From Myxococcota bacterium (GTDB lineage: Bacteria > Myxococcota_A > UBA9160 > UBA6930), in assembly GCA_965223415.1 (NCBI GenBank), contig OZ245002.1, positions 5,408,001 through 5,472,000 on the forward strand: a stretch of 64,000 nt of DNA, in the 5' to 3' direction. Positions within the stretch are counted from its first letter, which is position 1; each line of letters starts with the position of its first letter. A model generated the notes under the pieces. It was given only the letters and a program-made list of their open reading frames with translations, searched no databases and had not been told where the DNA came from. A program made the position numbers and the translations under genes. Positions 8,012 through 42,303 of the stretch are shown here, one piece after another.

Positions 8012-8036
8012 GAACCCCGACGGGCCCTGCTTCTGA

Positions 8037-8896: not shown

Positions 8897-8914
8897 CCGC
8901 GGCTGGGGGCCCGC

Positions 8915-9010
8915 CCCCCGACCCCCAGGTTCGAAGCCTGAAGGGACCCGTAGGAAATCCAAATAGTTACGGGATTCCGAGCGGGAATACGCGGGAATGA
9001 GCGGGAATAC
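8915..9010 (-). repeat. tRNA-Arg anticodon-arm fragment plus 3x10-bp repeat
   Basis: CCCCCGACCCCCAGGTTCGAAGCCTG (8915-8940); GCGGGAATAC/GCGGGAATGA/GCGGGAATAC (8981-9010). Confidence 0.85.
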
Positions 9011-10708: not shown

Positions 10709-11336
10709 GGACTTCGGGCTGCCGACGGCGATCCGCACCGACAACGGGGTTCCCTTCGCGTCGCCCAACGCACTCTTCGGTCTCTCGAGCTCTCGATCTG
10801 GTGGCTCAAGCTCGGCATCCAGATCCAGCGCATCAAGCCGGGCTGCCCCCAGCAGAACGGACGGCACGAACGCATGCATCTCACGCTCAAGAAAGAAGCC
10901 ACCAAGCCCGCGTCGTTCAACTTCCTGCAGCAGCAGGAGCGCTTCGACCGGTTCACAGGCGTTTACAATCACGAGCGACCGCACCAGGCCCTGGACGGGG
11001 CGTACCCCGGCGACGTCTATACACCTTCGCCGCGCGCCTACGAGCCGCCCGGGGAGCCCGAGTACCCGTTCCACGACCGATCCGTCCGGGTCACCCAGTG
11101 CGGTCGGATCTGCCTCGGACGCCGCAAGATCAATCTCAGCACCGTCTTCGCGGGCCAGACCGTGGGCCTCCGCGAGGTCGACGACCAGGTCTGGCTCGTC
11201 AGCTTCCTGGACTTCGATCTGGGCTTCTTCGACCAGGACGAGGGCCGGATCGAGCCCGCCCCGAACCCCTTCGGGCCCCAGAAAGTGTCAACCATGTCCC
11301 CGGAATGATCTGTAAACCATGTGCCCGGAATGGACC
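10709..11336 (+). mobile_element. IS481-family 3' fragment with right end
   Basis: IRTDNG, PQQNGRHERMHLTLK, YNHERPHQAL; repeated TGTMAACCATGT ends; 1-nt frameshift near 10788. Confidence 0.85.
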
Positions 11337-11346: not shown

Positions 11347-11424
11347 TGGCACGCCGGGAGGGATTCGAACCCCCGACCCCCAGGTTCGAAGCCCGATGCT
11401 CGATGTCGAACCACCGGACAACGC
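11347..11424 (-). repeat. tRNA-Arg(TCG)-like element with intact 3' half and aberrant 5' half
   Basis: Loop CTTCGAA, T arm GGGGG-TTCGAAT-CCCTC, CCA end; 6-nt D loop, 4-nt insertion in the acceptor strand. Confidence 0.8.
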
Positions 11425-11555: not shown

Positions 11556-11652
11556 TGGCGGGGCGGACGGGACTCGAACCTACAACCTCCGGCTGTAACC
11601 CCGCGGAAACGCGGGGGTTCGAAGAGGTGAAGCTTGTATCCCGTTGTATCCC
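11556..11652 (-). repeat. tRNA-Asp att-like module (97 bp)
   Basis: 25-nt tRNA 3' identity plus TTGTATCCC x2. Confidence 0.92.
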
Positions 11653-11692
11653 GCTGCGGGCAGCCGAGGGCTCCGACGCCCATGGATCGGTT

Positions 11693-11708: not shown

Positions 11709-12061
11709 CCTAGCTCGGTGCCGACGGAGGTCGAGGTCAGAATCTACGCCCTACCGGACGGCAGCGAGCCCTACACGCGGTGGGAGGCGGCACTCAGGGA
11801 CAGACAGGCGCGCGCACGGATCCGGGCGCGGATCGGACGGCTTCGGCTGGGCAACTTCGGCGACGCCAAGCGCGTCGGTGAGGTGTTCGAGCTTCGGGTG
11901 CCCGCCGGGCCCGGCTACCGCATCTACTACGGGCGGGACGGCGACGCCGTGGTGGTCCTGCTCTGCGGCGGAGACAAGTGTCGCAGGACGTGATATTCGA
12001 GGGCTAAGAGGACACGTAGATTTGCGCACCTCCTGTTGAGCCGCTGCGCGGCACGTTCCCC

Positions 12062-13348
12062 GTGAGGGAGGGGGGCGTGGGGCAGCGGCGACTGAGGCAG
12101 GAGGAAGTGATGACGATCGAAGTGCTGCACGAGCGGGGGTGCTCGAACCGGGAGATCGCCCGCCAGCTGGGGATCCGGGAGAGCGCGGTGCGCTACCGGC
12201 TGAAGCGGCTGGCGGAGGGGGCGCGAGACGGCCGGAGCGGGAAGCCCTTCCTGGCCGAGGCGGTCCACGAGGTGATCGCGGAGTGGCTGGAGGCGAGCTC
12301 GGGAGGCCGTGGCGTGAACCTGCAGGAGCTTCACGAGTTCCTGGTGGAGGAGCACGGGTACACGGGGAGCTCCAAGAGCGTGCAGCGGTACGTGCGGGCC
12401 CGGTTCCCGAGACCGAAGGTGCGGAGCCGGCGTCGGGTGGAGACACCGCCCGGGGCGCAGGGTCAGGTGGACTGGGGCGAGTTTCCGGGCGTGCGGATCG
12501 GGGGCCAGGAGGTGGACCTGCATGCCTTCCACCTGGTGCTCTCGCACTCGCGGCGAGAAGCGGTGGTGTGGTCGGAGCGGGCGGACACGCTGGCGTGGCT
12601 GGACGTGCACAACCGGGCCTTCGAGCGGCTGGGCGGGGTGCCGGCGGTGCTGCGGGTCGACAACGTGAAGACAGCGGTGGCGAAGGGGGCGGGGCCATGG
12701 GGGACGGTGAACCCGGCTTACGCGAGCTATGCCGGGGCCCTTCGCTTCCACGTGGACGCCACCCGTCCCCGCCAGCCGCAGGAGAAGGGGAAGGTGGAGC
12801 GTCGGATCCTGGGGCACCGGCGGGGCTTCGATCCGCGTCGGCGGGAGCACGAGAGCCTGGAGTCGCTGCAAGCGTGGACGGACGGCCAGGTGGCGCGCTC
12901 GAGCCACCGGCGGCAGTGCCCGGCGACGGGCACGACGGTCTTCCAGGCGTGGGAGGCGGAGAAGCCCCATCTCGGGGCCCTGCCCGAGCGGCTTCCCGAG
13001 CCCTTCGACCTGGCCGTGATGCGACGTGTCGGGCGCGACGCCACGGTGCGCTTCGAGGGGCGTACCTACAGCGTCCCCTTCCGCTTCGTCGAGCAGAGCG
13101 TCGAGGTGCGCGGCTGCGCCCGGCAGGTGCAGGTCTGGGCCGAGGGCTCGGTGGTGGCCGCGCACCCGCGCCACACGCGAAGCCGCCTGCTGCTGGACCC
13201 GAGCCACTACGAGGGGCCGAGCACGGAGGGGGTGGAGGCGCCCGTACCGCTCGGGCGCATGGGTCGACGCCTCCAGGAGCTGTGGGCGATGGAGCCGGAG
13301 CAGCGGCCGATCGACCTCTATGCCGATCTGGCGGAGGTGGCGCGATGA
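12062..13348 (+). CDS. istA: IS21 transposase
   Basis: PGAQGQVDWG, RVDNVK, KGKVER; start uncertain. Confidence 0.92.
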   Translation: MREGGVGQRRLRQEEVMTIEVLHERGCSNREIARQLGIRESAVRYRLKRLAEGARDGRSGKPFLAEAVHEVIAEWLEASSGGRGVNLQELHEFLVEEHGYTGSSKSVQRYVRARFPRPKVRSRRRVETPPGAQGQVDWGEFPGVRIGGQEVDLHAFHLVLSHSRREAVVWSERADTLAWLDVHNRAFERLGGVPAVLRVDNVKTAVAKGAGPWGTVNPAYASYAGALRFHVDATRPRQPQEKGKVERRILGHRRGFDPRRREHESLESLQAWTDGQVARSSHRRQCPATGTTVFQAWEAEKPHLGALPERLPEPFDLAVMRRVGRDATVRFEGRTYSVPFRFVEQSVEVRGCARQVQVWAEGSVVAAHPRHTRSRLLLDPSHYEGPSTEGVEAPVPLGRMGRRLQELWAMEPEQRPIDLYADLAEVAR

Positions 13349-14145
13349 CGGCGGGAAACCCGGTGCCCAAGAAGGGCGGCAAGGTGGATCTCGACCCGAC
13401 CCGCGAGCGGCTCGTGCGCCTCGGCCTCCATCACGCGGCCGAGCACATCGGCGAGGAGCTGGCCCGAGCGACCAAGGACGACCTCGTGCCCCACCGCTTC
13501 CTCGACCTGCTGCTCGAGGCCGAGCTGCAGCACCGCGAGGAGCGGAGGATGAAGACCTCGCTCCGTCTCTCGGGCCTTCCCACGGGGCAGACCCTCGGCA
13601 ACTTCGACTTCGCCTTCCAGCCGAGTGTGGAGCGGAGCCGGATCGAGACGCTGGGCACCTGCGCGTGGATCCGGGCCAAGGAGAGTCTGCTGATCCAGGG
13701 TCCGCCGGGAGTGGGCAAGACCCACCTGGCGGTGGCCCTGGGGGTGCGGGCCGTGGAGAACGGCTTCTCCGTGGCCTTCCATCGCCTCGAGGACCTGCTG
13801 GCGGCCCTCAAGCGCGACGCCGAGATCAGCCCGCAACGGCTGCGGCGGCGCAAGCACATGAACGTGGCGCTCCTCGTCATCGACGAGGTCGGCTTCGAGC
13901 CCATGACGCGCCAGGAGGCGAGCCTCTTCTTCCGGCTCGTCTCCTACCGCTATGGGAGGGGCTCGATCCTGATCACCACGAACAAGGGCATCGCCGACTG
14001 GCCCGAGGTGCTGGCGGGCGACGAGGTGCTGGCCACCGCCATCCTCGATCGCCTCCTCCACCACAGCCAGGTGCTCAACATCTCGGGGCGGAGCTACCGG
14101 CTCCGCGAGCTCGAGCAGGCCGCGGGGCAAAGCGCCCAGCGTTGA
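13345..14145 (+). CDS. istB: IS21 helper ATPase
   Basis: GPPGVGKT, VIDEVG, LDRLLHH. Confidence 0.93.
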   Translation: MTAGNPVPKKGGKVDLDPTRERLVRLGLHHAAEHIGEELARATKDDLVPHRFLDLLLEAELQHREERRMKTSLRLSGLPTGQTLGNFDFAFQPSVERSRIETLGTCAWIRAKESLLIQGPPGVGKTHLAVALGVRAVENGFSVAFHRLEDLLAALKRDAEISPQRLRRRKHMNVALLVIDEVGFEPMTRQEASLFFRLVSYRYGRGSILITTNKGIADWPEVLAGDEVLATAILDRLLHHSQVLNISGRSYRLRELEQAAGQSAQR

Positions 14146-14349
14146 GGCCCCAGAGGGCGGCCTGACGGCCGTGCTCTCCTTCGGAGAGCGGAAGAGAAGA
14201 AGGAAGAACCGAACATCAACCCAGGGGGGTGCGCAAAACTAGCCGTCCTCTTAGCGCGCAAGAGATGACGTCCCTCGACAACAAGGGATCACAGGCGAGA
14301 GACATCGAGCGCGCCGAAGGGTATTGGCGCGACTACCGGAGTCGAAACG

Positions 14350-14652
14350 ATGGCAAGAGCTAGAGACTACCGAGAGCACCTGGACGAGGTGCTGAAGGAC
14401 CACGCGGAGGCGGTGGCCTACCTGAACGCCGCTCTAGCAGAGGACGACCCGGAAGTGTTCCTCCTCGCGCTCCGCGACGTGGCCCGCACTCGGGAGGGTG
14501 GACTCGCAGGCCTGGCCGAGGCCGCGCAGCTCAACCGCGAGCACCTCTACCGGATGCTCTCCGAGAACGGCAACCCGGAGCTCCGCAGCCTGGAGGCACT
14601 CCTCGACGCGCTGGGCTTCCGCCTGAGCGTCGAGCTGAAGGCAACGGGCTGA
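14350..14652 (+). CDS. Addiction-module antidote (HTH antitoxin)
   Basis: YLNAAL..FLLALRDVAR..LNREHLYRMLSENGNP. Confidence 0.88.
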   Translation: MARARDYREHLDEVLKDHAEAVAYLNAALAEDDPEVFLLALRDVARTREGGLAGLAEAAQLNREHLYRMLSENGNPELRSLEALLDALGFRLSVELKATG

Positions 14653-14702
14653 AGCAAGCCGGGAACGCCGCGACCCTTCAGCCGAAGGCCAACGGCTGGT
14701 CG

Positions 14703-14796
14703 CCGACCCCCAGGTTCGAAGCCTGGTCCACGAAGAAGAAGTGACGCGGGGTTACGTCTCGTTGCAGTGCAGGGGGGTGCAATAGGGTGCAGGGAG
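14703..14796 (-). repeat. tRNA-Arg anticodon-arm fragment plus GTGCA x3 at 10-bp period
   Basis: CCGACCCCCAGGTTCGAAGCCTGGT (14703-14727); GTGCA at 14767, 14777, 14787. Confidence 0.85.
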
Positions 14797-16528: not shown

Positions 16529-17798
16529 CAGGCTGCTGAAATTCGGCGCTGAGAGGCGCCAGAACGCCAGAGGGCGCGGGTCCCCGCGGCCCGCTCGGCT
16601 CGCTCTTCGATCCCGGAAGCGATCCGGGGTACCTCGTCTCGATGCAGGTGCGTCATGTGACCTCTACGAGGTTGCGTATGCGGACCAGGTTGTAGACCGC
16701 CGCCGTGAAGACGAACATCCACCCGACCCGATCCGTGCCCCGGTGACGCGTCTTTCGCATTCCCCCGACCGTCTTCATCCAACCGAAGCACTCCTCGATC
16801 CGCTTGCGTTTGTGCTGGCTGATCGCGTAGCCCTCGTGACGGACCGTGCGACCGTCGATCCGGCTGGCCCGATTCGTCGTGTGCTGCGCCACGTGCGGCG
16901 TGATGTTGCGCTTCCGGCAGCCCGCCACGAACTCCTCGGTGTCGTAGCCCTTGTCCCCGCCCAGCGTGATCCGGCGCCTTCCCGCCACGTCCTCCGCCAT
17001 CTCCAGCGCTGCCAGCCGCTCGGCGTAGCCATCGGCCTCCGTCAGCAGCGCCGAGACGATCAGGCCGTTGCGGTTCTCCGTCAGCAGATGGCCCATGTAG
17101 GCCAGCTGCGAGGTCTGGCCCTTCTTGCGCGCCAGCCGCGCCTCGGGATCCGTCGTCGATTCGTGCGTCGCGTTGCTCCGCCGCTCTCCCCGAAAGTTCA
17201 CCGTCGGGTTGCCCGGATCGTCGTCTCCGTCGTCCCCCGAGCCGTCCTTCGCCCGGAAGCTCTTCTGGCTCGCCCACGCCTCGATCAGCGTGCCATCCAC
17301 CGTGAAGTGCTCCGACGACAGAAGGCCGTGGTCCTTTCCCTGCGCCAGCACCGCCTCAAAGAACGCCTCCGCCACGTCCCCTTCCAGCAGCCGGTCCCGG
17401 TTCTTCGTGAAGACCGTCGGGACCCAGACCGCATCCTCCATCCCCAGCCCTACGAACCAACGGAACAGCAGGTTGTACTCGAGCTGCTCCATCAGCTGGC
17501 GCTCACTCCGGATCGAGTAGAGCACCTGCAGCAACAGAGCCCGCAGCAGCCGCTCCGGTGGGATCGACGGCCGGCCCGTCGACGCGTAGAGCTCCGAGAA
17601 CCGCCGAGACAGGCCCCTCAGCGCCTCGTCCACCATCGCCCGCATGGGGCGAAGCGGATGATCCTCCGGAATCCGCGTCTCCAGCGAGACGTAGCTGAAC
17701 ATCGAACCCTGCTCTCGGTCGCTGCCGCGCATCCTCTCTCCCCCCGACCCATCTTCTACCATCGAGAACACGGAAACGCAGGGTTTTTCAGCAGCCTG
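16529..17798 (-). mobile_element. IS5-family element
   Basis: 13-bp IR CAGGCTGCTGAAA; CTAG duplication (16525-16528, 17799-17802). Confidence 0.92.
16653..17732 (-). CDS. IS5-family transposase
   Basis: GRPSIPPERLLRALLLQ, VDGT, GDKGYD, RKRIEECFG. Confidence 0.92.
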   Translation of the reverse strand: MRGSDREQGSMFSYVSLETRIPEDHPLRPMRAMVDEALRGLSRRFSELYASTGRPSIPPERLLRALLLQVLYSIRSERQLMEQLEYNLLFRWFVGLGMEDAVWVPTVFTKNRDRLLEGDVAEAFFEAVLAQGKDHGLLSSEHFTVDGTLIEAWASQKSFRAKDGSGDDGDDDPGNPTVNFRGERRSNATHESTTDPEARLARKKGQTSQLAYMGHLLTENRNGLIVSALLTEADGYAERLAALEMAEDVAGRRRITLGGDKGYDTEEFVAGCRKRNITPHVAQHTTNRASRIDGRTVRHEGYAISQHKRKRIEECFGWMKTVGGMRKTRHRGTDRVGWMFVFTAAVYNLVRIRNLVEVT

Positions 17799-18053
17799 CT
17801 AGGCGATACCAGGGTACGGTCCGGCCACATCCTTTACAGGAGTCCAGGGACATCGTTTACACCCGGGGGATGCCCTGGATGGAAACGGATGTCATTTCTC
17901 ACGGGCATGACTCACCTTTTCTCACGGGCATGACCCAGGCCTGACCGCGGTTTTCTCACGAGCATGACCCACCCCAGATGGGGGGGGCTCAGGAGGAGGC
18001 CGGTCCCGTGGCCGACCCAGGCCATTCTGCGGCGCCAGAGGAGGCGCAGGCAG

Positions 18054-19766
18054 ATGGCGTATCGCGAGGTCGGCATGTGGGAGATTCTGGAGGTGCTCCG
18101 CCGGGCGCACCGAGGCGAGAGCCAGGTGGCGATGGCGCGGGCCACGGGGCACACGCGCAAGACGATCCGGCGCTACGTGCAAGTCGCCGGGGAGCTGGGC
18201 TGGGTCGCCAGGGGGCCGAGGGAGCCGGATGAGGCCCTGGCCCAAGGGGTGGCGGCTCGGGTGCGGCCTGTGCCCACGCAGCGCGACGCGGGAGAGAGCG
18301 AGGCGCAGCTGGCGCCGCATGCCGACCGGATCCGAGCGTGGCTCCAGCCCGAGGCGGGTGGCCGAGGACTGCGGCTGACGAAGGTCTACGACCTGCTCGG
18401 GCGCGAGGGCGTGCGCGTCCCCTACAGCTCGCTCCACCGCTTCGCGGTCCGCCACTGCGGGTTCCAAGACCGGCGCCGGGTGACGGTGCGCATGGCGGCG
18501 GTGGCCCCCGGCGAGCTCGCCGAGGTCGACTTCGGCCGCCTCGGCATGGTCTGGGATCCGGAGACCGGGCGCCGCCGCACCGTTCATGCCCTGATCGTCA
18601 CCCTCGTCCATAGCCGCCACCAGTACGTCCACGTGACCTACGGCCAGAAGCTCCCCGATCTGCTCGAGGGGCTCGAGGACGCCTGGGCGTTCTTCGGCGG
18701 GGTCCCGGTGCGCGTGGTGCTGGACAATCTGAAGGCGGCCGTCACGAAGGCCGACCGCTACGAGCCGATCTTCCAGCGCACCTTCGCCGAGTACGCCCAC
18801 TACCGCGGCTTCGTCATCGATGCCGCCGTGCCTCGGCATCCCAAGGGCAAGCCCCACGTCGAGCGCCAGGTGCAGTACGTGCGCGAGCGCTTCTTCCGTG
18901 GCGAGCAGTGGCTGGGACGCGACCACGTGCAGCGCGAGGCCGCGCGCTGGTGCCTGGAGGTCGCCGGCCAGCGCACTCACGGGACGACGCGCAAGAGGCC
19001 CCTGGCCGTCTTCGAGAACACGGAGAAGCCGGCTCTGCAGCCCCTCGTGCGCCCGCGCTTCGATCCGCCCACCTGGGCCGAGGCGAAGGTCCACCCCGAC
19101 CACCACGTCCAGTTCCAAAAGGCCTTCTACACCGTGCCCACCCGCCACGTGGGCAAGCGCGTCTGGGTTCGCGGCGACTCGAAGCTCATCCGCATGTACG
19201 TCGACGGCGAGTGCATCAAGACCCACGAGCGCGTGGACCCTGGCTGCCGCTCCACCGACTACCACGACTATCCGCCCGAGCGTGCCCCCTACGCCATGCG
19301 GGACCCGGAAGCGGCGATCCGCCAGGCGCGCGACCAGGGGCCTCACATTGGGCGCTTCGCCGAGAAGCTCCTGGCCGGCCCCTTCCCCTGGTCCAAGCTC
19401 CGCCAGGCCCAGAAGCTGCTTCGCCTCGGCCACAAGTACGGCCTGCCGCGCGTCGACGCCGGCTGCCGCAGGGCCCTCGCCTTCGACCTCATCAACACGA
19501 AGCGCCTCGAACGCATCGTGGCCGAAGGCATCCAGCCGCTCGGCGACCCCAGCACCCCCGGACAGCTCCTGCTCCTGCCGCCCCGTTTCCTGCGCCCGCA
19601 AGGGCACTTCACCCACCCCAACGACAACCCCGACAAGGAGACCACCCCCCATGACGACCGAGATCAACCCGTCCCTCAAGACCCTGCTCAAACGCCTGAA
19701 GCTCTCGGGCATGCTGGCCACGCTCCCCGATCGCGTGGCCTACACCCGGAAGACGAAGCTCCCTGA
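18054..19766 (+). CDS. istA: IS21 transposase
   Basis: PGELAEVDFG, VLDNLK, KPHVER. Confidence 0.9.
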   Translation: MAYREVGMWEILEVLRRAHRGESQVAMARATGHTRKTIRRYVQVAGELGWVARGPREPDEALAQGVAARVRPVPTQRDAGESEAQLAPHADRIRAWLQPEAGGRGLRLTKVYDLLGREGVRVPYSSLHRFAVRHCGFQDRRRVTVRMAAVAPGELAEVDFGRLGMVWDPETGRRRTVHALIVTLVHSRHQYVHVTYGQKLPDLLEGLEDAWAFFGGVPVRVVLDNLKAAVTKADRYEPIFQRTFAEYAHYRGFVIDAAVPRHPKGKPHVERQVQYVRERFFRGEQWLGRDHVQREAARWCLEVAGQRTHGTTRKRPLAVFENTEKPALQPLVRPRFDPPTWAEAKVHPDHHVQFQKAFYTVPTRHVGKRVWVRGDSKLIRMYVDGECIKTHERVDPGCRSTDYHDYPPERAPYAMRDPEAAIRQARDQGPHIGRFAEKLLAGPFPWSKLRQAQKLLRLGHKYGLPRVDAGCRRALAFDLINTKRLERIVAEGIQPLGDPSTPGQLLLLPPRFLRPQGHFTHPNDNPDKETTPHDDRDQPVPQDPAQTPEALGHAGHAPRSRGLHPEDEAP

Positions 19767-20457: not shown

Positions 20458-21928
20458 CGCCAAACAAGGAGCGTGCTACCTCATCCACCGGCCCGGGACC
20501 CATGGGTCAACCCCGTGAGAATACCTGGGTCATGCCCGCGGGAATCGACAAACGGATGCAAGGAAGCAGCGGCAGGCGTTCGTTCGCGACTACGAGAGCG
20601 GTCAGTGGTCGATGAGCGAGCTGTGTCGGCGGTATCGTGTCTCCCGGCCCACAGGCTACAAGTGGCTCGGGCGCTTCGAGTCGGAGGGGGAGGCCGGCCT
20701 GGAGGAGAGGTCCCGTGCGCCGGCTCGCTGCCCGCACAGGACGCCAGCGAGCGTGGAGCGCAAGATCCTGGCCCTTCGCGCCGAGTACGGCTGGGGTGCG
20801 AAGAAGATCTTGCAGGTGCTCGAGCGCCGGTACCCGAAGATGCAGAGGCCCGCGCGAAGCACGGTGAACGCGATCCTCGATCGCCACGGCAAGCTGCGCA
20901 AGAACCGACGTCGGAAGAAGTGGTCGCATCCCGGCGCTGCGTCGCTGTCGACCGACCACCCGAACCAGGTGTGGCCCGCGGACTTCAAGGGCCAATTCAA
21001 GATGCGCAACGGTCGCTACTGCTACCCGCTGACCGTGACCGACCACTGCAGCCGCAAGCTCCTGATGTGCCGCGGGCTGCACTCGATTCGCACCGAGGGC
21101 GTGAAGCCGCTGTTTCGGGAGCTCTTTCGCGAGGTCGGACTTCCCGAGGCGATTCGCACCGACAACGGTGCCCCCTTCGCATCGACCGGGATCCACGGCC
21201 TGTGCGAACTCAACGTGTGGTGGATGAAGCTCGGCATCGTGCACCAGCGCATCCGTCCTTCGAGCCCCCAACAGAACGGGCAGCACGAGAGGATGCACAA
21301 GGACCTCAAACGCGAGGCGACCCGCCCGCCTGGCGCGAACCTCAACGTCCAGCAGCGGATGCTCGAGGCCTTTCGTCGACGCTACAACGAGGAGCGGCCG
21401 CACGAAGCACTCGGTGGAGCGTTTCCCGAGGAGCGCTACGAGCCCTCGCCGCGGCCGTACCCCAGTCGCCTCTCGCCGCCGGAGTACCCTGCGCAGATGG
21501 AAGTGCGCCGCGTGAGCCGGGCCGGGACGTTTCGGCTGAAGGCGAAGCAGCCCTTCCTGAGCAACGCACTGGCCGATGAGTACATCGGACTTGAAGAGAT
21601 CGGCGACGGCATCTGGAGCATCGTCTACTACGAGACGATCCTGGGCCGCATCGACGAGCGCAGCAGGAAGATCACCGGAGTCTGAGAGGTGTAAACGATC
21701 TACCTGGACTTGTGTAAAGGATCAGCCGGACCGGTCACAGGGCACCGGGCGATCCCGAGCGTTGGCGTCTGGCCTACAACCATGCGGAGCGATTGGGGGT
21801 GTCGGGTGCCGGTCGGTGCCGTCACTGCCGAGCGGCCGAGTCTCGCAACCCCTCGAGAACACTGCGTGTCCGAACTGAGCCCCAGCCGCGGCACCTGAGG
21901 GTCGCAGCGGAACCGATGCAACCCCGCG

Positions 21929-22676
21929 TGTGCTTAGCGAGACATCGCTGACACCTGATTCCGGAGACATGGTTTACACAATCGGCAATTTGGGGAGCCC
22001 CCGGATGCCGTGGAGAACGTGTAGACCGATGGATGAACGCCTCCGCTTCGTAGCTCGCCTGCTCGAGGGCGAGAAGATGGCGCCCCTGTGCCGCGAGTTC
22101 GGGATCTCCCGGGTCACCGGGTACAAGATCTACGAGCGCTACAAGACCTGCGGCCTCGAGGGCCTGAACGACCGCTCCCGCCGGCCCTATCGCCACGCCA
22201 ACAAGCTGCCGTACCAGGTCGAACGCGCGATCCTGGGGATCAAGAAGGAGTACCCCTCCTGGGGGGCTCCGAAGATCCGCGACAAGCTGATCCGCGACTT
22301 CCCGATGATCAAACCGCCCGCGGTGAGCACGGTGCATGCCGTGCTGGATCGCAACGGACTGGTCATGCGGCGGAAGCGGAGACGCCACAAGGCCAAGGGC
22401 ACGGAGCTCAAGGCGGCCCACGCTCCGAACGGCCTGTGGTGCGCAGACTTCAAGGGCGAGTTCATGCTCGGCAGCAAGCAGTACTGCTACCCGCTGACGA
22501 TCACCGACTACCGAACGCGCTACCTACTCGCCTGCGAGGGTCTCTCGTCGACGCGGTCGGACTTCGCCTTCTCCGTCTTCGAGAGGACCTTCAAGGACTT
22601 CGGGCTGCCGACGGCGATCCGCACCGACAACGGGGTTCCCTTCGCGTCGCCCAACGCACTCTTCGGTCTCTCGAAG
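21929..22676 (+). mobile_element. IS481-family 5' fragment with left end
   Basis: TGT start, GACATGGTTTACA motif, MPW..WCADFKG..IRTDNG, then truncated. Confidence 0.85.
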
Positions 22677-22681
22677 TCAAC

Positions 22682-23014
22682 ATGCTCGAAGGCATCTTCG
22701 GAAACGCCAGCGCCGAGAAAGTGCTGCTCTACCTCGAGCAGTACGAGGAGGGCTACGCGACCGCGATCGCCCGGACCTTCGACGGCCTGTCGCTCAACAT
22801 GGCGCAGCGGCAGCTCGAGCGATTCGAGCGCGCCGGCGCGCTGGTGAGCTCGCTCCAGGGCCGCACCCGCCTCTACACCTGGAATCCCCGCTATCCGTTT
22901 CGGCGCGAGCTGCGGGCCCTCCTCCGCAAGGCGCTCGACCAGCTGCCCGCGTCAGAGCGCAAGCGCTACTTCACCGAACGAAGACGGCCGCGCCGAGCGG
23001 GCAAGCCGATTTGA
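22682..23014 (+). CDS. Winged-HTH protein
   Basis: MLEGIFGN..EKVLLYL..YATAIAR..QRQLERFE..GRTRLYTWNP; coupled downstream ORF (23011) cut by IS21. Confidence 0.75.
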   Translation: MLEGIFGNASAEKVLLYLEQYEEGYATAIARTFDGLSLNMAQRQLERFERAGALVSSLQGRTRLYTWNPRYPFRRELRALLRKALDQLPASERKRYFTERRRPRRAGKPI

Positions 23015-23216: not shown

Positions 23217-24017
23217 TCAACGCTGGGCGCTTTGCCCCGCGGCCTGCTCGAGCTCGCGGAGCCGGTAGCTCCGCCCCGAGATGTTGAGCACCTGGCTGTG
23301 GTGGAGGAGGCGATCGAGGATGGCGGTGGCCAGCACCTCGTCGCCCGCCAGCACCTCGGGCCAGTCGGCGATGCCCTTGTTCGTGGTGATCAGGATCGAG
23401 CCCCTCCCATAGCGGTAGGAGACGAGCCGGAAGAAGAGGCTCGCCTCCTGGCGCGTCATGGGCTCGAAGCCGACCTCGTCGATGACGAGGAGCGCCACGT
23501 TCATGTGCTTGCGCCGCCGCAGCCGTTGCGGGCTGATCTCGGCGTCGCGCTTGAGGGCCGCCAGCAGGTCCTCGAGGCGATGGAAGGCCACGGAGAAGCC
23601 GTTCTCCACGGCCCGCACCCCCAGGGCCACCGCCAGGTGGGTCTTGCCCACTCCCGGCGGACCCTGGATCAGCAGACTCTCCTTGGCCCGGATCCACGCG
23701 CAGGTGCCCAGCGTCTCGATCCGGCTCCGCTCCACACTCGGCTGGAAGGCGAAGTCGAAGTTGCCGAGGGTCTGCCCCGTGGGAAGGCCCGAGAGACGGA
23801 GCGAGGTCTTCATCCTCCGCTCCTCGCGGTGCTGCAGCTCGGCCTCGAGCAGCAGGTCGAGGAAGCGGTGGGGCACGAGGTCGTCCTTGGTCGCTCGGGC
23901 CAGCTCCTCGCCGATGTGCTCGGCCGCGTGATGGAGGCCGAGGCGCACGAGCCGCTCGCGGGTCGGGTCGAGATCCACCTTGCCGCCCTTCTTGGGCACC
24001 GGGTTTCCCGCCGTCAT
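23217..24017 (-). CDS. istB: IS21 helper ATPase
   Basis: Same protein as 13345-14145. Confidence 0.93.
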   Translation of the reverse strand: MTAGNPVPKKGGKVDLDPTRERLVRLGLHHAAEHIGEELARATKDDLVPHRFLDLLLEAELQHREERRMKTSLRLSGLPTGQTLGNFDFAFQPSVERSRIETLGTCAWIRAKESLLIQGPPGVGKTHLAVALGVRAVENGFSVAFHRLEDLLAALKRDAEISPQRLRRRKHMNVALLVIDEVGFEPMTRQEASLFFRLVSYRYGRGSILITTNKGIADWPEVLAGDEVLATAILDRLLHHSQVLNISGRSYRLRELEQAAGQSAQR

Positions 24018-25300
24018 CGCGCCACCTCCGCCAGATCGGCATAGAGGTCGATCGGCCGCTGCTCCGGCTCCATCGCCCACAGCTCCTGGAGGCGTCGACC
24101 CATGCGCCCGAGCGGTACGGGCGCCTCCACCCCCTCCGTGCTCGGCCCCTCGTAGTGGCTCGGGTCCAGCAGCAGGCGGCTTCGCGTGTGGCGCGGGTGC
24201 GCGGCCACCACCGAGCCCTCGGCCCAGACCTGCACCTGCCGGGCGCAGCCGCGCACCTCGACGCTCTGCTCGACGAAGCGGAAGGGGACGCTGTAGGTAC
24301 GCCCCTCGAAGCGCACCGTGGCGTCGCGCCCGACACGTCGCATCACGGCCAGGTCGAAGGGCTCGGGAAGCCGCTCGGGCAGGGCCCCGAGATGGGGCTT
24401 CTCCGCCTCCCACGCCTGGAAGACCGTCGTGCCCGTCGCCGGGCACTGCCGCCGGTGGCTCGAGCGCGCCACCTGGCCGTCCGTCCACGCTTGCAGCGAC
24501 TCCAGGCTCTCGTGCTCCCGCCGACGCGGATCGAAGCCCCGCCGGTGCCCCAGGATCCGACGCTCCACCTTCCCCTTCTCCTGCGGCTGGCGGGGACGGG
24601 TGGCGTCCACGTGGAAGCGAAGGGCCCCGGCATAGCTCGCGTAAGCCGGGTTCACCGTCCCCCATGGCCCCGCCCCCTTCGCCACCGCTGTCTTCACGTT
24701 GTCGACCCGCAGCACCGCCGGCACCCCGCCCAGCCGCTCGAAGGCCCGGTTGTGCACGTCCAGCCACGCCAGCGTGTCCGCCCGCTCCGACCACACCACC
24801 GCTTCTCGCCGCGAGTGCGAGAGCACCAGGTGGAAGGCATGCAGGTCCACCTCCTGGCCCCCGATCCGCACGCCCGGAAACTCGCCCCAGTCCACCTGAC
24901 CCTGCGCCCCGGGCGGTGTCTCCACCCGACGCCGGCTCCGCACCTTCGGTCTCGGGAACCGGGCCCGCACGTACCGCTGCACGCTCTTGGAGCTCCCCGT
25001 GTACCCGTGCTCCTCCACCAGGAACTCGTGAAGCTCCTGCAGGTTCACGCCACGGCCTCCCGAGCTCGCCTCCAGCCACTCCGCGATCACCTCGTGGACC
25101 GCCTCGGCCAGGAAGGGCTTCCCGCTCCGGCCGTCTCGCGCCCCCTCCGCCAGCCGCTTCAGCCGGTAGCGCACCGCGCTCTCCCGGATCCCCAGCTGGC
25201 GGGCGATCTCCCGGTTCGAGCACCCCCGCTCGTGCAGCACTTCGATCGTCATCACTTCCTCCTGCCTCAGTCGCCGCTGCCCCACGCCCCCCTCCCTCAC
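24014..25300 (-). CDS. istA: IS21 transposase
   Basis: Same protein as 12062-13348. Confidence 0.92.
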   Translation of the reverse strand: MREGGVGQRRLRQEEVMTIEVLHERGCSNREIARQLGIRESAVRYRLKRLAEGARDGRSGKPFLAEAVHEVIAEWLEASSGGRGVNLQELHEFLVEEHGYTGSSKSVQRYVRARFPRPKVRSRRRVETPPGAQGQVDWGEFPGVRIGGQEVDLHAFHLVLSHSRREAVVWSERADTLAWLDVHNRAFERLGGVPAVLRVDNVKTAVAKGAGPWGTVNPAYASYAGALRFHVDATRPRQPQEKGKVERRILGHRRGFDPRRREHESLESLQAWTDGQVARSSHRRQCPATGTTVFQAWEAEKPHLGALPERLPEPFDLAVMRRVGRDATVRFEGRTYSVPFRFVEQSVEVRGCARQVQVWAEGSVVAAHPRHTRSRLLLDPSHYEGPSTEGVEAPVPLGRMGRRLQELWAMEPEQRPIDLYADLAEVAR

Positions 25301-25758: not shown

Positions 25759-26559
25759 ATGACCGTGGGCGACGAAGCCACCTACCAGCTACTGCGCGGC
25801 TTGGGGCTCGCTGTCGCCTTTGCGCTAGGAATCGCGCTGGAGCAGTGGCGCCCGCACGAACGCCTGCGACCGGCGTGGCGCACCAACGTCGGCCTCTGGG
25901 CCATCGACGCCGCCGTCATGGCCGCTGTCTGCGGGGCGTGCGGGTGGCTCGTGGCCGCCTGGGCGGCGAGCCTCGGACTCGGGCTCTTCGCCTGGCTTGA
26001 CACCCCCACCTGGGCGGCGGCCGCGTTCGGCGTGCTGGCGCTCGATGGCGTCTCGTACGCCTGGCACCGCGCGAACCACCGGATCCCGCTCCTCTGGCGC
26101 TTCCACCAGGTACATCACGCGGACACGAGCTTCCACGTGACGACGGCGTTGCGCTTCCATCCCGGAGAGCTCCTGCTCGCCCTCCCCGTCCGCCTCGCCG
26201 CCGTGGTGGCGTTGGGCGTGCCACCGGCGGGCGTCCTCCTCTTCGAGATCGTCTTCGGGATCGCGAACCTCCTGGAGCACGGGAACTTCGACCTTCCCCG
26301 CCGCTTCGAGCCCTTGGCGCAGCGCGTGCTCATCACGCCGGCGCTGCACCGGGCGCATCACGTCTCCGACTGGCAGGAGCTGGACACGAACTTCGGCACG
26401 ATCCTCTCGGCGTGGGATCGCCTCGCCGGAACGCTGCGCACGAGTGACGGGGCTCGCCGCGTGGTGACCGGGCTGCCCGACTGGAAAGCAGAACGAGCGC
26501 CGTCGCTCTCGGAGTCGCTCTTCCTGCCCCTTTCCCAAAGCCGTTCGCGAGCGCGCTGA
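25759..26559 (+). CDS. Sterol desaturase/fatty-acid hydroxylase family
   Basis: YAWHRANH, FHQVHH, RFHP, HRAHH, TNFG..WDRL.GT. Confidence 0.9.
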   Translation: MTVGDEATYQLLRGLGLAVAFALGIALEQWRPHERLRPAWRTNVGLWAIDAAVMAAVCGACGWLVAAWAASLGLGLFAWLDTPTWAAAAFGVLALDGVSYAWHRANHRIPLLWRFHQVHHADTSFHVTTALRFHPGELLLALPVRLAAVVALGVPPAGVLLFEIVFGIANLLEHGNFDLPRRFEPLAQRVLITPALHRAHHVSDWQELDTNFGTILSAWDRLAGTLRTSDGARRVVTGLPDWKAERAPSLSESLFLPLSQSRSRAR

Positions 26560-26602
26560 AGACCCCACCCGGCGAACTCCAACAACGGCTCGATGGGCGC
26601 GG

Positions 26603-26720
26603 TTGTATCCCGCTTGTATCCCGACCCGCGCACACGTCGAGAACACGAGCGAGCACGCCCACTTGCAGACGAAGCGTGCGGGTTTCGAGAAACCCGAAAA
26701 GCTGAACGAAATCAGCTAGA
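26603..26720. repeat. Alternative left flank of the Asp module
   Basis: TTGTATCCC at 26603 and 26614; 26670-26720 homologous to ~1323-1372. Confidence 0.75.
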
Positions 26721-26817
26721 TGGCGGGGCGGACGGGACTCGAACCTACAACCTCCGGCCCTAAGTGCCCGGAAACACAATGGTTCAGACGACTGAAGCTT
26801 GTATCCCGTTGTATCCC
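26721..26817 (-). repeat. tRNA-Asp att-like module (97 bp)
   Basis: 25-nt tRNA 3' identity plus TTGTATCCC x2. Confidence 0.92.
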
Positions 26818-26882
26818 GCCATCCGCAGGCAAGGGCTCCGACATCCGTGGTGTGGTTGTAGCTTTAAAGCTACGCTAGCTCG

Positions 26883-27221
26883 GTGCCGACGGAGGTCGAG
26901 GTCAGAATCTACGCCCTGCCGGACGGCAGCGAGCCCTACACGCGGTGGGAGGCGGCACTCAGGGACAGACAGGCGCGGGCACGCATCCGGGCGCGGATCG
27001 GACGGCTTCGGCTCGGCAACTTCGGCGACGCCAAGCGCGTGGGTGAGGTGTTCGAGCTTCGGGTTCGCGCCGGGCCCGGCTACCGCATCTACTACGGAAG
27101 GGACGGCGACGCCGTGGTGGTCCTGCTCTGCGGCGGAGACAAGGGATCACAGGCGAGAGACATCGAGCGCGCCGAAGGGTATTGGCGCGACTACCGGAGT
27201 CGAAACGATGGCAAGAGCTAG
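26883..27221 (+). CDS. RelE/HigB-family addiction-module toxin
   Basis: GNFGDAKRVG.VFELRV..GPGYRIYY..LLCGGDKGSQ.RDI. Confidence 0.9.
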   Translation: MPTEVEVRIYALPDGSEPYTRWEAALRDRQARARIRARIGRLRLGNFGDAKRVGEVFELRVRAGPGYRIYYGRDGDAVVVLLCGGDKGSQARDIERAEGYWRDYRSRNDGKS

Positions 27222-27510
27222 AGACTACCGAGAGCACCTGGACGAGGTGCTGAAGGACGACGCGGAGGCGGTGGCCTACCTGAACGCCGCTCTTGCGGAG
27301 GACGACCCGGAAGTGTTCCTCCTCGCGCTCCGCGACGTGGCCCGCACTCGAGAGGGTGGACTCGCAGGCCTGGCCGAGGCCGCGCAGCTCAACCGCGAGC
27401 ACCTCTACCGGATGCTCTCCGAGAACGGCAACCCGGAGCTCCGCAGCCTGGAGGCACTCCTCGACGCGCTGGGCTTCCGCCTGAGCGTCGAGCTGAAGGC
27501 AACGGGCTGA
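27208..27510 (+). CDS. Addiction-module antidote (HTH antitoxin)
   Basis: One residue different from 14350-14652. Confidence 0.88.
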   Translation: MARARDYREHLDEVLKDDAEAVAYLNAALAEDDPEVFLLALRDVARTREGGLAGLAEAAQLNREHLYRMLSENGNPELRSLEALLDALGFRLSVELKATG

Positions 27511-27574
27511 AGCAGCCGGGAACGCCGCAACCCTTCAAGCGAAGGCCGCCGCTGTCCCCCGACCCTTGTATCTA

Positions 27575-27790
27575 CTCCACTCACCCGGATCTGGTTCAAT
27601 AGGGTCAGAACGGGTTTCGGGGGAGGGTCGCCGTCCCGACCCAGAGGCATGGTCCTCGTACCTGAGAGAGGCGCCCTCGCCCGATCTCGCAAGCTCGAAC
27701 GGTATCCCGAGGCAGCGGTCTGCCGCTCGTCCTCGCATGCACAAGGAAGAGCACCGAGGTCGGCACCGAGGCTCCCGACGCTCCCGTTCG
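27575..27790 (+). ncRNA. Predicted IS110 bridge RNA (ends approximate)
   Basis: Four guide segments in canonical order at 27635, 27660, 27699, 27741, each pair around a hairpin. Confidence 0.8.
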
Positions 27791-27805
27791 AGGAGGAAGA
27801 AGGGG

Positions 27806-28981
27806 ATGCGCTTCGTTGGGATCGACATCGCCTCGGAAACGCACGTCGTCGCGATGGTGGGAGAAGACGGGGGCGTGCTGCTGAAGCCGGTCTCGTTCCG
27901 GGAGGAGGCGGCTGGCTACGCACTGCTGTGGGAGAAGCTGGGAGGCCCCGAGGACACGCTCGTAACGCTCGAGGCAACGGGGCACTACTGGAAGAACCTG
28001 TTCGCGGCGCTTGCGGCGAGGGGTTTTGCCGTGGCGTTGATCAACCCGCTGCGCAGTCGCCGGTTCGCACAAGAAGACTTGGAGCGGACGAAGACCGACG
28101 CAATCGATGCGCTCGGCCTGGCTCGCTTCGGAGCACAGAAGCGTCCGAGGGTGACTCGCCTTCCGGACGCGGCGACAGAAGAGCTTCGTGAGCTCGTCCG
28201 GCTCCGCGATCGTCTGGTTCAGGACTTCGGGGACTGCACCCGGCGGCTCCACCGCATGGTCGATCTGGGCTTCCCAGAGCTCAAACGGTACGTGAAGCAC
28301 CTCGATAGCCAGCTGTCGACGGGGCTGCTGCGGGAGTACCCCACGGCAAGAGCCTTCCAGGAAGCCTCTGTGGGGCGCGTGGCAAAGCTTCGCTACGACG
28401 GTCGTCATCGTGTAGGCGATGCGCTCGCGAAGCAGCTCGTCGAGGCTGCGCAGAACTCGGTGGGCGCCCATCATGGCCCGGCCTACCAGGTGCAGGTGCG
28501 TTACCTGTGCGAAGACATGGACGTCTTGCGCAAGAGACTCGGCGACATCGACCGCGACATCGCGGATCAGCTATCCGCGCACGAGGTCGGAAGCTTGCTG
28601 ACGACGATCGATGGGATCGGGCCGACGACGGCAGCACGGCTCATCGCGGAGCTCGGTGACCCGGCCGACTTCGCCACGGCCGCAGCCCTCGCCGCCTACG
28701 TGGGCGTCGTTCCAGGCCTAAAGCAGTCGGGCAAGCGCCAAGGCAAACGCGGGAACCTCTCGCCAATCGGTCACGCGCGGCTACGTCGCGCACTGTGGAT
28801 GCCGACGTTGGTCGCCGTTCGGAAGAACCCCTGGGTGCGGGCCCACTACGAGCGGCTGCGCGACAACGGCAAGCCCGCAAAGGTCGCGCTGATCGCCTCG
28901 ACGAGGAAGCTGCTCATCGCGGTTCACGTCGTGGCGAGGACCCGCAAGCCCTTCGTTCCACAGCTAGAGACCAACCCATGA
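27806..28981 (+). CDS. IS110 DEDD recombinase
   Basis: VGIDIA, LEATG, KTDAIDA, GIGP, YVG.VP..KQSG. Confidence 0.95.
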   Translation: MRFVGIDIASETHVVAMVGEDGGVLLKPVSFREEAAGYALLWEKLGGPEDTLVTLEATGHYWKNLFAALAARGFAVALINPLRSRRFAQEDLERTKTDAIDALGLARFGAQKRPRVTRLPDAATEELRELVRLRDRLVQDFGDCTRRLHRMVDLGFPELKRYVKHLDSQLSTGLLREYPTARAFQEASVGRVAKLRYDGRHRVGDALAKQLVEAAQNSVGAHHGPAYQVQVRYLCEDMDVLRKRLGDIDRDIADQLSAHEVGSLLTTIDGIGPTTAARLIAELGDPADFATAAALAAYVGVVPGLKQSGKRQGKRGNLSPIGHARLRRALWMPTLVAVRKNPWVRAHYERLRDNGKPAKVALIASTRKLLIAVHVVARTRKPFVPQLETNP

Positions 28982-29026
28982 ACCGAGAAAACCGGGCCCA
29001 GCCCCTTGCTGAAGATCACGGTATCT

Positions 29027-29112
29027 CAGGTTCGAAGCCTGGTCCAAGAAGAAGAAGTGACGCGGGGTTACGTCTCGTTGCAGTGCAGGGGGGTGCAATA
29101 GGGTGCAGGAAG
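29027..29112 (-). repeat. Right part of the tRNA-Arg fragment plus GTGCA x3
   Basis: Near copy of 14711-14796; GTGCA at 29083, 29093, 29103. Confidence 0.85.
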
Positions 29113-29179
29113 GTGTCGTTTCGACGGCACCGAGTCGCGGGACGGCACTATACGGCGCCTCTCTAGAGAGTCTCCTCGC

Positions 29180-30442
29180 CTAAGAACTCTCGAGCACGAC
29201 CGGCAGCGATTCGAGCCCCAGCACGAAGCTGCCGCGGCGCATGTCCAGCGGGGCGTCCGGTTCCGCGAGCGCGATGTCCGGGAGCCGGTCGAGCAGTTCG
29301 TCGAAGAGGACGCGCAGTTCGAGGCGGGCCAGCTGTGCGCCAAGGCAGTGGTGCCGCCCGTAGCCGCCGAAGGCCATGTGCAGGTTCGGCGACCGGCGGA
29401 TGTCGAAGCGGTAGGGGTCCTCGAAGACGTCCTCGTCGCGATTGCCCGACGGGTAGAGCAGCAGCAGCTTCTCTCCGTTCCGGATCTGCTGGCCCCCGAA
29501 CTCGACGTCGCGCGTCGCCGTGCGGGACATGTTCTTGACCGGCGTGACCCAGCGGAGCATCTCCTCGATGGCTCCCTTCAGGAGCGAGCGGTCGGTGCGC
29601 AGTGCTTCCCACTGGTCGCGGTGGCGCATCAGCGCCTCGAAGCCGCCGGACATCACGTGCCGCGTCGTCTCGTCGCCTCCGACCAGGATGAGCATCGCCT
29701 CGGAGATCACGTCGTCGAGCGAGAGCTGCTGGCCCTCGAAGTCTGCATTGACGACGAGGCTGATCAGATCCTCGCCCTCGTTCCCCTGACGCCCCGTGAC
29801 GATCGGATGCATGTACCGGTTGTACTCGCCTACGGCCGCGAGGAGTCCGTCGACGTCGTCGAAGTTCCCGGCGGCGAAGATGTCCGACCAGTAGAGAAGC
29901 TTGGCATGGTCTTCTTCCGGGAGCCCCATCAGCGCACCGATCATGTACATCGGGAGCGGTGTCGCGAGGTCCCGGACGAAGTCGCCGGAGCCGCGCTCGA
30001 CAAGGGCGTCGATCAACTGGGTGACCTTCTCTCGCAGGTACGGCTCGTGCGCTTCGACGCGCCTCGGCGTGAATCCGGCACTGACGATGCCGCGACGCAG
30101 ATTGTGTTCGGGCGGGTCGCAGTTGATCATCTGCGGGGCCCGTCCCTGGGGACGCGAACCCTCGCCCGAGCAGAAAGTGTCGTGGTCCCGGGCCACCTCC
30201 ATGATGTCTTCGTAGCGGGCGATCCCCCAGATCCCCGAATGGTCGTCCCAGTAGACGGGTGCCTCCCTTCGCATCCATTCGTAGTGAGGCCCCGGGTCGG
30301 CATGGAAGTCGGGATGCAGGAGACGGATCTCCGGACGGGTGGGGTGCTCGGGGGTTCGCGTCCCGGCACTCGCCAGGACCCCCGACTTCAGCCTCTCGAC
30401 CTGCTTCTCGCTGAGCAGGGGGCGATCCGGCGTTTCTGCCAT
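29180..30442 (-). CDS. Cytochrome P450 (CYP142/125-like)
   Basis: GGDETT, EMLRW, FGGYGRHHCLG. Confidence 0.92.
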   Translation of the reverse strand: MAETPDRPLLSEKQVERLKSGVLASAGTRTPEHPTRPEIRLLHPDFHADPGPHYEWMRREAPVYWDDHSGIWGIARYEDIMEVARDHDTFCSGEGSRPQGRAPQMINCDPPEHNLRRGIVSAGFTPRRVEAHEPYLREKVTQLIDALVERGSGDFVRDLATPLPMYMIGALMGLPEEDHAKLLYWSDIFAAGNFDDVDGLLAAVGEYNRYMHPIVTGRQGNEGEDLISLVVNADFEGQQLSLDDVISEAMLILVGGDETTRHVMSGGFEALMRHRDQWEALRTDRSLLKGAIEEMLRWVTPVKNMSRTATRDVEFGGQQIRNGEKLLLLYPSGNRDEDVFEDPYRFDIRRSPNLHMAFGGYGRHHCLGAQLARLELRVLFDELLDRLPDIALAEPDAPLDMRRGSFVLGLESLPVVLESS

Positions 30443-41804: not shown

Positions 41805-41882
41805 TGGCACGCCGGGAGGGATTCGAACCCCCGACCCCCAGGTTCGAAGCCTGGTGCTCGATGTCGAACCACCGGACAACGC
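41805..41882 (-). repeat. tRNA-Arg(TCG)-like element with intact 3' half and aberrant 5' half
   Basis: CCAGG-CTTCGAA-CCTGG arm, T arm, CCA; near copy of 11347-11424. Confidence 0.8.
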
Positions 41883-42013: not shown

Positions 42014-42110
42014 TGGCGGGGCGGACGGGACTCGAACCTACAACCTCCGGCCGTAACTCCGCGGAAACGCAGGGGTCCGGATCGGTGAAGCTTGTATCCC
42101 GTTGTATCCC
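42014..42110 (-). repeat. tRNA-Asp att-like module (97 bp)
   Basis: 25-nt tRNA 3' identity plus TTGTATCCC x2. Confidence 0.92.
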
Positions 42111-42303
42111 AACCTCTCCGGGACCCCCCGCTGCCCCGAGCGCAGTGGGGTTTGGCGGGACCCAGTCAACCAGGTGCGACCAGTTCGAACCGGACTTCGC
42201 GCGAAGAGGACGCGGGAATCGAACCCGGGCTCAAGGGACGCAAGCGCCGGAAAGGAGTGGCGTCGATCTCTCGTATCGTCACTCACCACCCGTGAGGCGT
42301 GCA

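Follow-up and report, generated by a model that had tools for sequence, protein, structure and literature searches.

An IS110-group insertion sequence in a Myxococcota genome whose predicted bridge RNA matches its own ends and its occupied target

Does the long non-coding end of an IS110-family insertion sequence encode a bridge RNA, and does that RNA account for the site in which the element sits? The question is raised by an element at positions 27567-29026 of a 64,000-nucleotide stretch of Myxococcota DNA (contig OZ245002.1), which was analysed as a whole and is called the window here. The site it occupies resembles part of a tRNA and is repeated nearby. In our judgment the best explanation, and a highly probable one, is an IS110-group element with a bridge RNA that matches both its own ends and its occupied target. 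We observed family membership, conserved catalytic residues, a covarying RNA structure, complementarity of the guides, and covariation of guides and flanks across the clade. The coordinates of all features are collected in Table 1.

The window contains an intact IS110-group insertion sequence of 1460 bp. Its left junction reads CCCGACC-CT-TGTATC (27558-27572) and its right junction ACGGTAT-CT-CAGGT (29018-29031). The core CT was present at both junctions, with no further duplication and no terminal inverted repeats, as is characteristic of the IS110 group. Without the element and one CT, the flanks were colinear with an uninterrupted paralogous site at 14696-14726; the boundaries are therefore correct, and nothing but the core was duplicated. 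The left end measured 239 nt and the right end 43 nt. A left end much longer than the right is typical of the IS110 group, and the reverse of the IS1111 group (PMC11208160). The element thus belongs to the IS110 group, with its RNA in the left end, and the IS1111 group is excluded.

In the region 27200-29400, a long forward open reading frame (ORF) was found, with 239 nt of non-coding sequence ahead of it. Its product carries the domains PF01548 (DEDD_Tnp_IS110, N-terminal, RuvC-like; E 3.4e-36) and PF02371 (Transposase_20, C-terminal Tnp; E 3.3e-28). It scored 254.5 bits, against a cutoff of 140, with the NCBIfam equivalog NF033542, "IS110 family RNA-guided transposase". The best solved relatives were the transposases of ISCro4 (E 4.6e-37) and IS621 (E 1.2e-35, chain 8wt6). 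For IS621, the catalytic residues are D11, E60, D102, D105, S241 and G242 (Hiraizumi et al., PMC11208158). These aligned with D7, E56, D98, D101 and S308-G309 of the window protein, so that all five catalytic residues are kept; the alignment was limited to recombinase residues 2-139 and 225-384, and the numbering of the IS621 PDB chain is shifted by two.

Relatives of the element were used to examine the left end. A scan of a genome collection gave 80 loci, with recombinases 54-71% identical to that of the window. The left-end start CT-TGTA was recognised in 63 sequences, including the window, and both junctions in 55. The right ends of the relatives have CTTGAC...ACGGTAT-CT in common, and their flanks are highly diverse. 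An alignment of 60 distinct left ends (A3) showed near-invariant stems, and its variable blocks were exactly the two halves of the first loop. The RNAalifold consensus consisted of two internal-loop modules inside a short outer stem. Its 40 consensus pairs were 97.3% paired over the 60 sequences, with compensatory (both-sided) changes in 23 of the 40. None of 500 shuffles was as good on any of five measures, and sliding the partners by 1-3 columns, as a control, left only 41-50% paired.

A covariance model (R1) was built from 52 relatives, leaving out the window and also seven rows with large insertions (L022, L027, L039, L042, L048, L044 and L051). In the window it matched 27617-27778 along its full length (model positions 1-162 of 162; 143.6 bits, E 5.6e-21), and the next best match had 17.5 bits. 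All six helices were paired in the window sequence. Judged from this covarying structure, the left end is a predicted bridge RNA-encoding sequence. A single-sequence fold of the same left end had z = -1.01, and 31 of 200 shuffles folded as well. Such a fold is uninformative because the sequence is rich in G+C, and we therefore relied on the alignment. Five of the seven rows with large insertions (L022, L027, L039, L042 and L048, from Azospirillum, Nitrospirillum and Parvibaculum) had a 27-nt GC-rich hairpin inserted in the terminal hairpin of the donor-binding module, whose apical hairpin thus tolerates expansion. Two Rfam matches were dismissed as chance: skipping-rope, on the strand of the RNA (16.8 bits, E 2.4), and sX15, on the opposite strand (23.2 bits, threshold 55).

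The flanks rebuild the target CCCGACC-CT-CAGGTTCGAAGCCTGG, against which both halves of the target-binding loop can be read. In the donor-binding loop, the right guide paired ACAAG with CTTGT and AU with AT, with a 2-nt bulge between. The pairing is likewise discontiguous in IS621, where nine bases of the RNA meet seven of the donor (PMC11208160), and the handshake guide of the donor loop has been described (PMC11208158). The second core base was read by neither left guide of the window, where A27643 (target) and C27707 (donor) occupy the corresponding positions. A free search of the left end, for the left 7-mer and then the complement of the right 5-mer within 60 nt, succeeded for 257 of 127,968 window positions (0.2%). 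It was too permissive and was therefore replaced by a position-specific test. At the two homologous guide positions, only three window positions matched (8924, 11379 and 41837), and all three were paralogues of the target.

An earlier note, made from the letters of the window, had proposed an IS110 element with a bridge RNA in its left end, the rebuilt target CCCGACC-CT-CAGGT and the circle junction ACGGTAT-CT-TGTAT. The junction sequences agree with this to the base. Domains, family model, catalytic residues, CT junctions and end layout all agree with an IS110 element, and a model built without the window found the proposed RNA. The guide strings in the note were located at the positions it gave: CCCGACCC at 27635-27642, ACCTGAG at 27660-27666, ACGGTATC at 27699-27706 and ACAAG at 27741-27745. 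The same holds for the stems it placed between the guide pairs, GAGG (27644-47) with CCTC (27654-57) and CGAGG (27708-12) with CCTCG (27731-35). It had also given an IS621 donor string that differs by one base, and this string occurs in an IS621 donor oligo (PMC13396178).

Across the clade, guides were compared with flanks at 44 loci for which the first loop was parsed and both flanks were available, using 2000 permuted pairings; L035 and L058 (first loop unparsed) and loci with short flanks were omitted. Of 7 non-core positions, an average of 4.41 agreed between the left guide and the left flank of the same locus (3.23 in permuted pairings, with a maximum of 3.82), and the four variable right-guide positions matched at a mean of 2.95 of 4 (permuted mean 1.51, maximum 1.98). 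The handshake base was Watson-Crick complementary to target position 7 in 41 of the 44 loci (permuted mean 29.8, maximum 37). For none of the three measures did any of the 2000 permutations equal the observed matching. The window was among the best-matched loci: its left guide agreed at 7/7, and against the flanks of other loci the guides reached at most 5/7 and 2/4. On the donor side, the variable fifth base of the left end was complementary to its guide (column 266) in all 60 sequences (T/A 37, A/T 21, C/G 2). The left donor guide equalled the right-end terminus at 7/7 in 49 of 52 loci, and in all six loci with a variant terminus the guide varied in the same way. At its ninth base, the left donor guide had C instead of U in 55 of 60 members, so an unread second core base is normal on the donor side of this clade.

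These counts bear on another view of the left end, as merely a 5' untranslated regulator of recombinase expression whose complementarity to the flanks is incidental. An older proposal, mentioned in PMC11208160, holds that IS110 non-coding ends regulate the recombinase, and the single-sequence fold of the window is indeed not unusually stable. However, loops as well as stems track the flanks and ends, to an extent that no permutation reproduced, the donor guide is complementary throughout the 60 sequences, and no window position other than paralogues of the target matches at the guide positions. We regard the regulator view as extremely improbable.

Several observations nevertheless weigh against a bridge RNA of the usual kind in the window. 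The Rfam scan of 26500-29500, with E up to 10, returned no relevant family. At 23 of the 44 loci the left guide matched the left flank at only 2-4 of 7 positions, and left-guide matching is thus no strict rule in the clade. The left target guide of the window fits one base 3' of the clade's usual register; the usual register, with 4/9, was rejected for the +1 register, with 8/9. The +1 register was also clear in L066 (8/9 vs 1/9), and less clear in L004, L005, L013 and L079. A27643 was the sole A in its column among 60 sequences, where most relatives have CU, and it breaks the closing pair of the inner stem; IS621 strongly prefers that both strands of the CT core be paired (PMC11208160). The element was present as a single copy within the window. 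Finally, the promoter expected at the circle junction, TTGCTG-17-TATCTA, lies at the place homologous to that of the relatives and matched 6 of 12 positions when read by eye. The relatives have the type TTGACA-17-TATGTT, with TTGAC at the place of the window's TTGCTG (29006-29011), and 21 of 55 loci matched at 9-10 of 12. These scores refer to the sigma-70 consensus, which may not describe this host with 68.5% G+C.

The weak promoter, the unique A27643 with its broken closing pair and the single copy would also be expected of a stranded or weakened copy, inserted by the bridge mechanism and transposing poorly after decay of its junction promoter and of the guide base that reads the core. The ORF is intact, however, with all catalytic residues, the six helices all pair, and the promoter score is subject to the reservation about the consensus. 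In a protein search, closer recombinases, 84-99% identical, were on record, mostly on short metagenome-type contigs. The protein was 100% identical on 2 contigs and 98-99% identical elsewhere, which suggests recent spread. We consider a weakened copy possible, though doubtful.

For the preferred reading, a bridge-guided IS110-group element, a course of events can be proposed by analogy with IS621. The element would excise as a circle, and the joined right and left ends would create a promoter transcribing the left end into a bridge RNA of ~160-200 nt. No sigma-70-like site was found in the integrated form, which fits a presumed expression only after circularisation. The target-binding loop would read the left target on its bottom strand with CCCGACCC(A) and the right target on its top strand with (U)ACCUGAG. 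With ACGGUAUC(C) and AUGCACAAG, the donor-binding loop would recognise the junction of the element itself. Strand exchange at the CT core would follow, carried out by a tetrameric DEDD/Ser recombinase. The same analogy suggests that the recombinase binds the RNA and that the element may be active today.

Read as its reverse complement, the rebuilt target shows an anticodon stem-loop (CCAGG CTTCGAA CCTG.), then a variable loop and the first part of a T-stem; the target is a ~25-bp fragment that looks like the complementary strand of a tRNA-Arg anticodon arm with its variable loop. It lies just downstream of a RelE/antidote cassette, and the position of the element is precisely the one indicated by its target loop. 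The cassette has a second copy, 99% identical over 300 nt, at 14281-14652. Five copies of the fragment were present in the window, and only the occupied one had a CT core. The four empty copies (8917, 11372, 14702 and 41830) all had CC at the core, where 0.26 matches were expected by chance.

Neither ARAGORN nor Rfam called a tRNA at 27540-27566 or 29025-29060, and the occupied site did not form a complete cloverleaf. ARAGORN called a tRNA-Arg(TCG) at the two longer copies of the fragment, 11351-11420 and 41809-41878 (-). In Rfam, where the threshold is 29 bits, these copies scored only 30.0 and 36.9, over model positions 4-67 alone. Read by eye, their D loop was without GG and their acceptor stem was interrupted. 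Their 5' third belongs to a block of ~165 nt that also follows a true tRNA-Asp (48705-48778), where the stretch homologous to the tRNA-Arg(TCG) calls is without ~12 nt of the anticodon arm. Low scores, defects of the D loop and acceptor stem, and a 5' third derived from downstream of tRNA-Asp cast doubt on these calls as tRNA-Arg(TCG) genes; they are probably tRNA-Arg-like chimeras, Arg-like in their 3' two-thirds. The earlier note had named a tRNA-Arg site. The likeness to a tRNA-Arg anticodon arm stands, but no tRNA gene was found at the site, and the longer copies are weak.

At the occupied site, the C-to-T difference disrupts pair 27-43 of what would be an anticodon stem, a change to be expected of a fragment in decay. 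Top- and bottom-strand cuts lie either side of the core (PMC11208158). A CC target turned into CT by the insertion was considered and rejected: it would give one CC and one CT junction in each daughter strand, and both observed junctions are CT. The simpler reading is therefore that the site already read CT before the insertion, as we infer from the two junctions.

The repeated target raises the possibility that the element is a specialist for the att-site repeats of tRNA-integrating cassettes, with a target loop evolved to read the att sequence. The target sequence occurs five times in 64 kb, far above expectation. At 8913, 14696 and 27556 it marks the right edge of toxin-antitoxin/HTH cassettes, and together with the longer copies at 11354 and 41812 these three make up direct repeats. 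A preference of IS110 elements for repeated sequences is known (PMC11208160), and four of the relatives (L016, L028, L029 and L066) share one repeat-like left flank, GGCCCTGCGGCG-CT-CAT. On the other hand, only one of the five copies is occupied, and because the empty ones have CC, where guides and donor require CT, the typical repeat is a poor substrate. A scan of 52 window ORFs revealed no integrase, and the att site itself thus stays putative. A scan for tRNAs within 1.5 kb of 60 related loci found one tRNA-Met, 340 nt from a junction, and none at a junction, so there is no tRNA-targeting habit in the clade. A preference cannot be shown by one insertion. An att-site specialist therefore seems unlikely to us. 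The earlier note had gone as far as an element parasitising the att site of the array as IS1111 elements do with integron attC; this was not borne out, given the single occupied copy, the four empty CC copies, the lack of an integrase among the ORFs scanned and the IS110-group layout.

None of the relatives in the genome collection (54-71% identical) shared the target loop of the window. A distant DNA search of a plasmid collection gave 6 records, with a best identity of 67.9% and no close copy; the best match was to Sandaracinus plasmids, annotated as IS110 family transposase. Eight loci of Burkholderiales- or Casimicrobiaceae-type (L016, L028, L029, L066, L073, L019, L001 and L002) had near-identical GC-rich left flanks, GG(A/G)CGGCCC(T/A/G)GCGGCG-CT-CAT... 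This shared flank suggests a REP-like repeated target for the sub-clade, which would fit the habit of IS110 elements of using repeated sequences (PMC11208160).

A still bolder idea, which we rate as quite unlikely, is that the lineage tuned its target loop to the scar of tRNA-integrating cassettes, the repeated anticodon-arm palindrome, as a set of safe multi-copy landing pads. If so, one C-to-T change in a decaying repeat would turn an immune CC site into a susceptible CT site. The element would then parallel, within the IS110 group, the association of IS1111 with attC, and functional tRNA-like copies would be spared for a reason built into the system. A limited literature search, judged by titles and abstract openings, found no paper on an IS110 bridge RNA with a tRNA-type target.

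Table 1 Features of the element, its predicted bridge RNA and related sites in the window (all on the + strand).
Feature	Position	Strand	Details
Left target half-site CCCGACC	27558..27564	+	equals left target guide 27635-27641; colinear with 14702-14708 of the empty paralogue
Core CT, left junction copy	27565..27566	+	CT ahead of TGTA in all 63 recognised left ends
Left non-coding end, 239 nt, predicted to encode the bridge RNA	27567..27805	+	59 distinct relatives have homologous left ends (alignment A3)
Predicted 5' stem-loop	27583..27615	+	single-sequence minimum-energy fold only; absent from consensus structure, weakly supported
Predicted bridge RNA core (both binding loops and enclosing stem)	27617..27778	+	model R1, 143.6 bits
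Target-binding loop module	27623..27678	+	outer stem GAGGG.CGCC / GGCGCCCTC, inner hairpin GAGG / CCTC; helices 2 and 3 100% and 99% paired
Left target guide CCCGACCCA	27635..27643	+	8/9 against left target plus core CCCGACCCT
Right target guide UACCUGAG	27659..27666	+	reverse complement CTCAGGTA against CTCAGGTT (29025-29032), 7/8
Donor-binding loop module	27681..27763	+	outer stems and inner hairpin CGAGG...CCTCG; helices 4-6 92-98% paired, 17/22 pairs compensatory
Left donor guide ACGGUAUCC	27699..27707	+	8/9 against right-end terminus plus core ACGGTATCT (29018-29026)
Right donor guide AUGCACAAG	27737..27745	+	9 nt reading CTTGTAT (7 donor bases) discontiguously
Donor-loop handshake guide G	27746..27746	+	complementary to target position 7 (C27564)
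Recombinase gene, 391 aa	27806..28981	+	ATG 27806; GGAGG ribosome-binding site 27792-27796
Right non-coding end, 43 nt	28982..29024	+	-35-like TTGCTG 29006-29011; left donor half ACGGTAT 29018-29024
Core CT, right junction copy	29025..29026	+	sequence
Right target half CAGGT (29027-29031), within palindrome from anticodon-arm-like fragment	29027..29042	+	sequence
Closest empty paralogue, GCCGACC-CC-CAGGT	14696..14726	+	reads GCCGACC-CC-CAGGTTCGAAGCCTGGTCC; after second toxin-antitoxin cassette copy
Empty paralogous site CCCGACC-CC-CAGGT	41830..41843	+	same sequence at 8917-8930 and 11372-11385
TTGTATCCCG motif sites	1267-1276, 4723-4872, 7993-8012, 11634-11653, 26603-26623, 26799-26818, 42092-42111	+	

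The surroundings of the element are themselves a mosaic. The true tRNA-Asp is on the minus strand, and 3' fragments of it were found near 1312, 4702, 7842, 11553, 26720 and 42000. The fragments adjoin a tandem repeat of TTGTATCCCG, except for that at ~1312, which has a single copy with one mismatch (at 1267). Short cargos (BrnT/MqsA-like, PIN, HTH and the two RelE/antidote pairs), mostly toxin-antitoxin genes, lie between them. From its sequence, the region 1300-48800 of the window has the appearance of an array built up by accretion of small integrated elements. The 10-bp motif TTGTATCCCG had 14 matches at ≤1 mismatch, all on the + strand and mostly in tandem pairs, where 1.55 were expected; these may serve the integrated cassettes as arm-type binding sites for a recombinase. 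Five of the motifs contain CTTGTATC, the 8 bases of the IS110 core plus right donor half. CTTGTATC itself had 6 matches in the window, against 0.31 expected, but five of them come from one repeat family, and its overlap with the core and donor of the element is probably due to chance. "Half-match" recombination has been reported (bioRxiv 10.64898/2026.08.31.748434).

Other insertion sequences were dense at 2230-4603, 10589-11308, 16653-17771, 17964-19766 and 20612-22847. They comprised IS21 (IstA/IstB), two IS481-like elements, an IS5/DDE_Tnp_1 element and an ORF with a Mu-transposase-C domain; one IS481-like element contained 80 nt that are repeated exactly at 10709 and 22595. An IS21-type element (IstA-like ORF 12062-13348) interrupts the RelE-like toxin gene of the first cassette copy (11719-14652), and an identical IstA-like ORF lies inverted at 24014-25300. 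Mobile elements seem to have collected in the region as in a sink.

Bridge RNAs were described in 2024 and have been predicted in 85.7% of IS110-group elements (PMC11208160). The locus thus adds little to IS110 biology, and NCBI already names the protein family "RNA-guided transposase". Its use lies in being a clean natural example, readable throughout, from a lineage of high G+C, in particular for its long (7-8 nt) right target guide and for left guides that leave the second core base unread. Within the same 64 kb, one occupied site with a CT core can be contrasted naturally with four empty paralogues whose core is CC. The 60-sequence alignment and its covariance model could serve the annotation of the clade. 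For the tRNA-derived target to be of importance, the same preference would have to be seen in further copies.

The closest described system is IS621 of E. coli, also of the IS110 group (Durrant et al. 2024, PMC11208160; Hiraizumi et al. 2024, PMC11208158). It has the same two Pfam domains and D/E/D/D/S residues, a CT core, an RNA in the left end, and loops in the order left target, right target, left donor and right donor guide. Its left guides also have 9 nt, nine nucleotides of its right donor guide read seven donor bases discontiguously, and a handshake base lies 3' of the right donor guide; the donor of the window, ACGGTAT-CT-TGTAT, is one base off that of IS621. The right target guide differs, with 7-8 nt in the window and 4 nt, extendable to 7, in IS621, as does the target, a tRNA-derived fragment in the window and a REP element in IS621. 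In addition, the window protein is a distant relative of 391 aa, compared with 326 aa for IS621. Further differences are that the second core base goes unread by both left guides of the window, that the two loops are enclosed by an additional stem (27619-22 with 27773-76), and that the window has a weak junction promoter.

Post and Hall reportedly described, in 2009, IS1111-group elements that target integron attC sites, an association drawn from many insertions. The likeness is one of concept, an IS110-family element in a recombination-site repeat of another mobile system, and the window offers a single insertion instead of many. The IS1111 group further differs in having its RNA in the right end and subterminal inverted repeats, where the window has the IS110-group layout (PMC11208160).

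ISPpu10 and ISPpu9 of Pseudomonas putida belong to the IS110 family and reside in REP or conserved intergenic repeats (bioRxiv 10.64898/2026.03.19.712850, PMC12288879). Like them, the window element is inserted in one copy of a short, palindrome-bearing intergenic repeat: its right target half lies within a palindrome with a 5-bp stem and a 7-nt loop, inherited from the anticodon arm. In ISPpu10 the stem-loop is 5' of the target and was shown to matter, whereas the palindrome of the window is on the 3' side, with a putative role.

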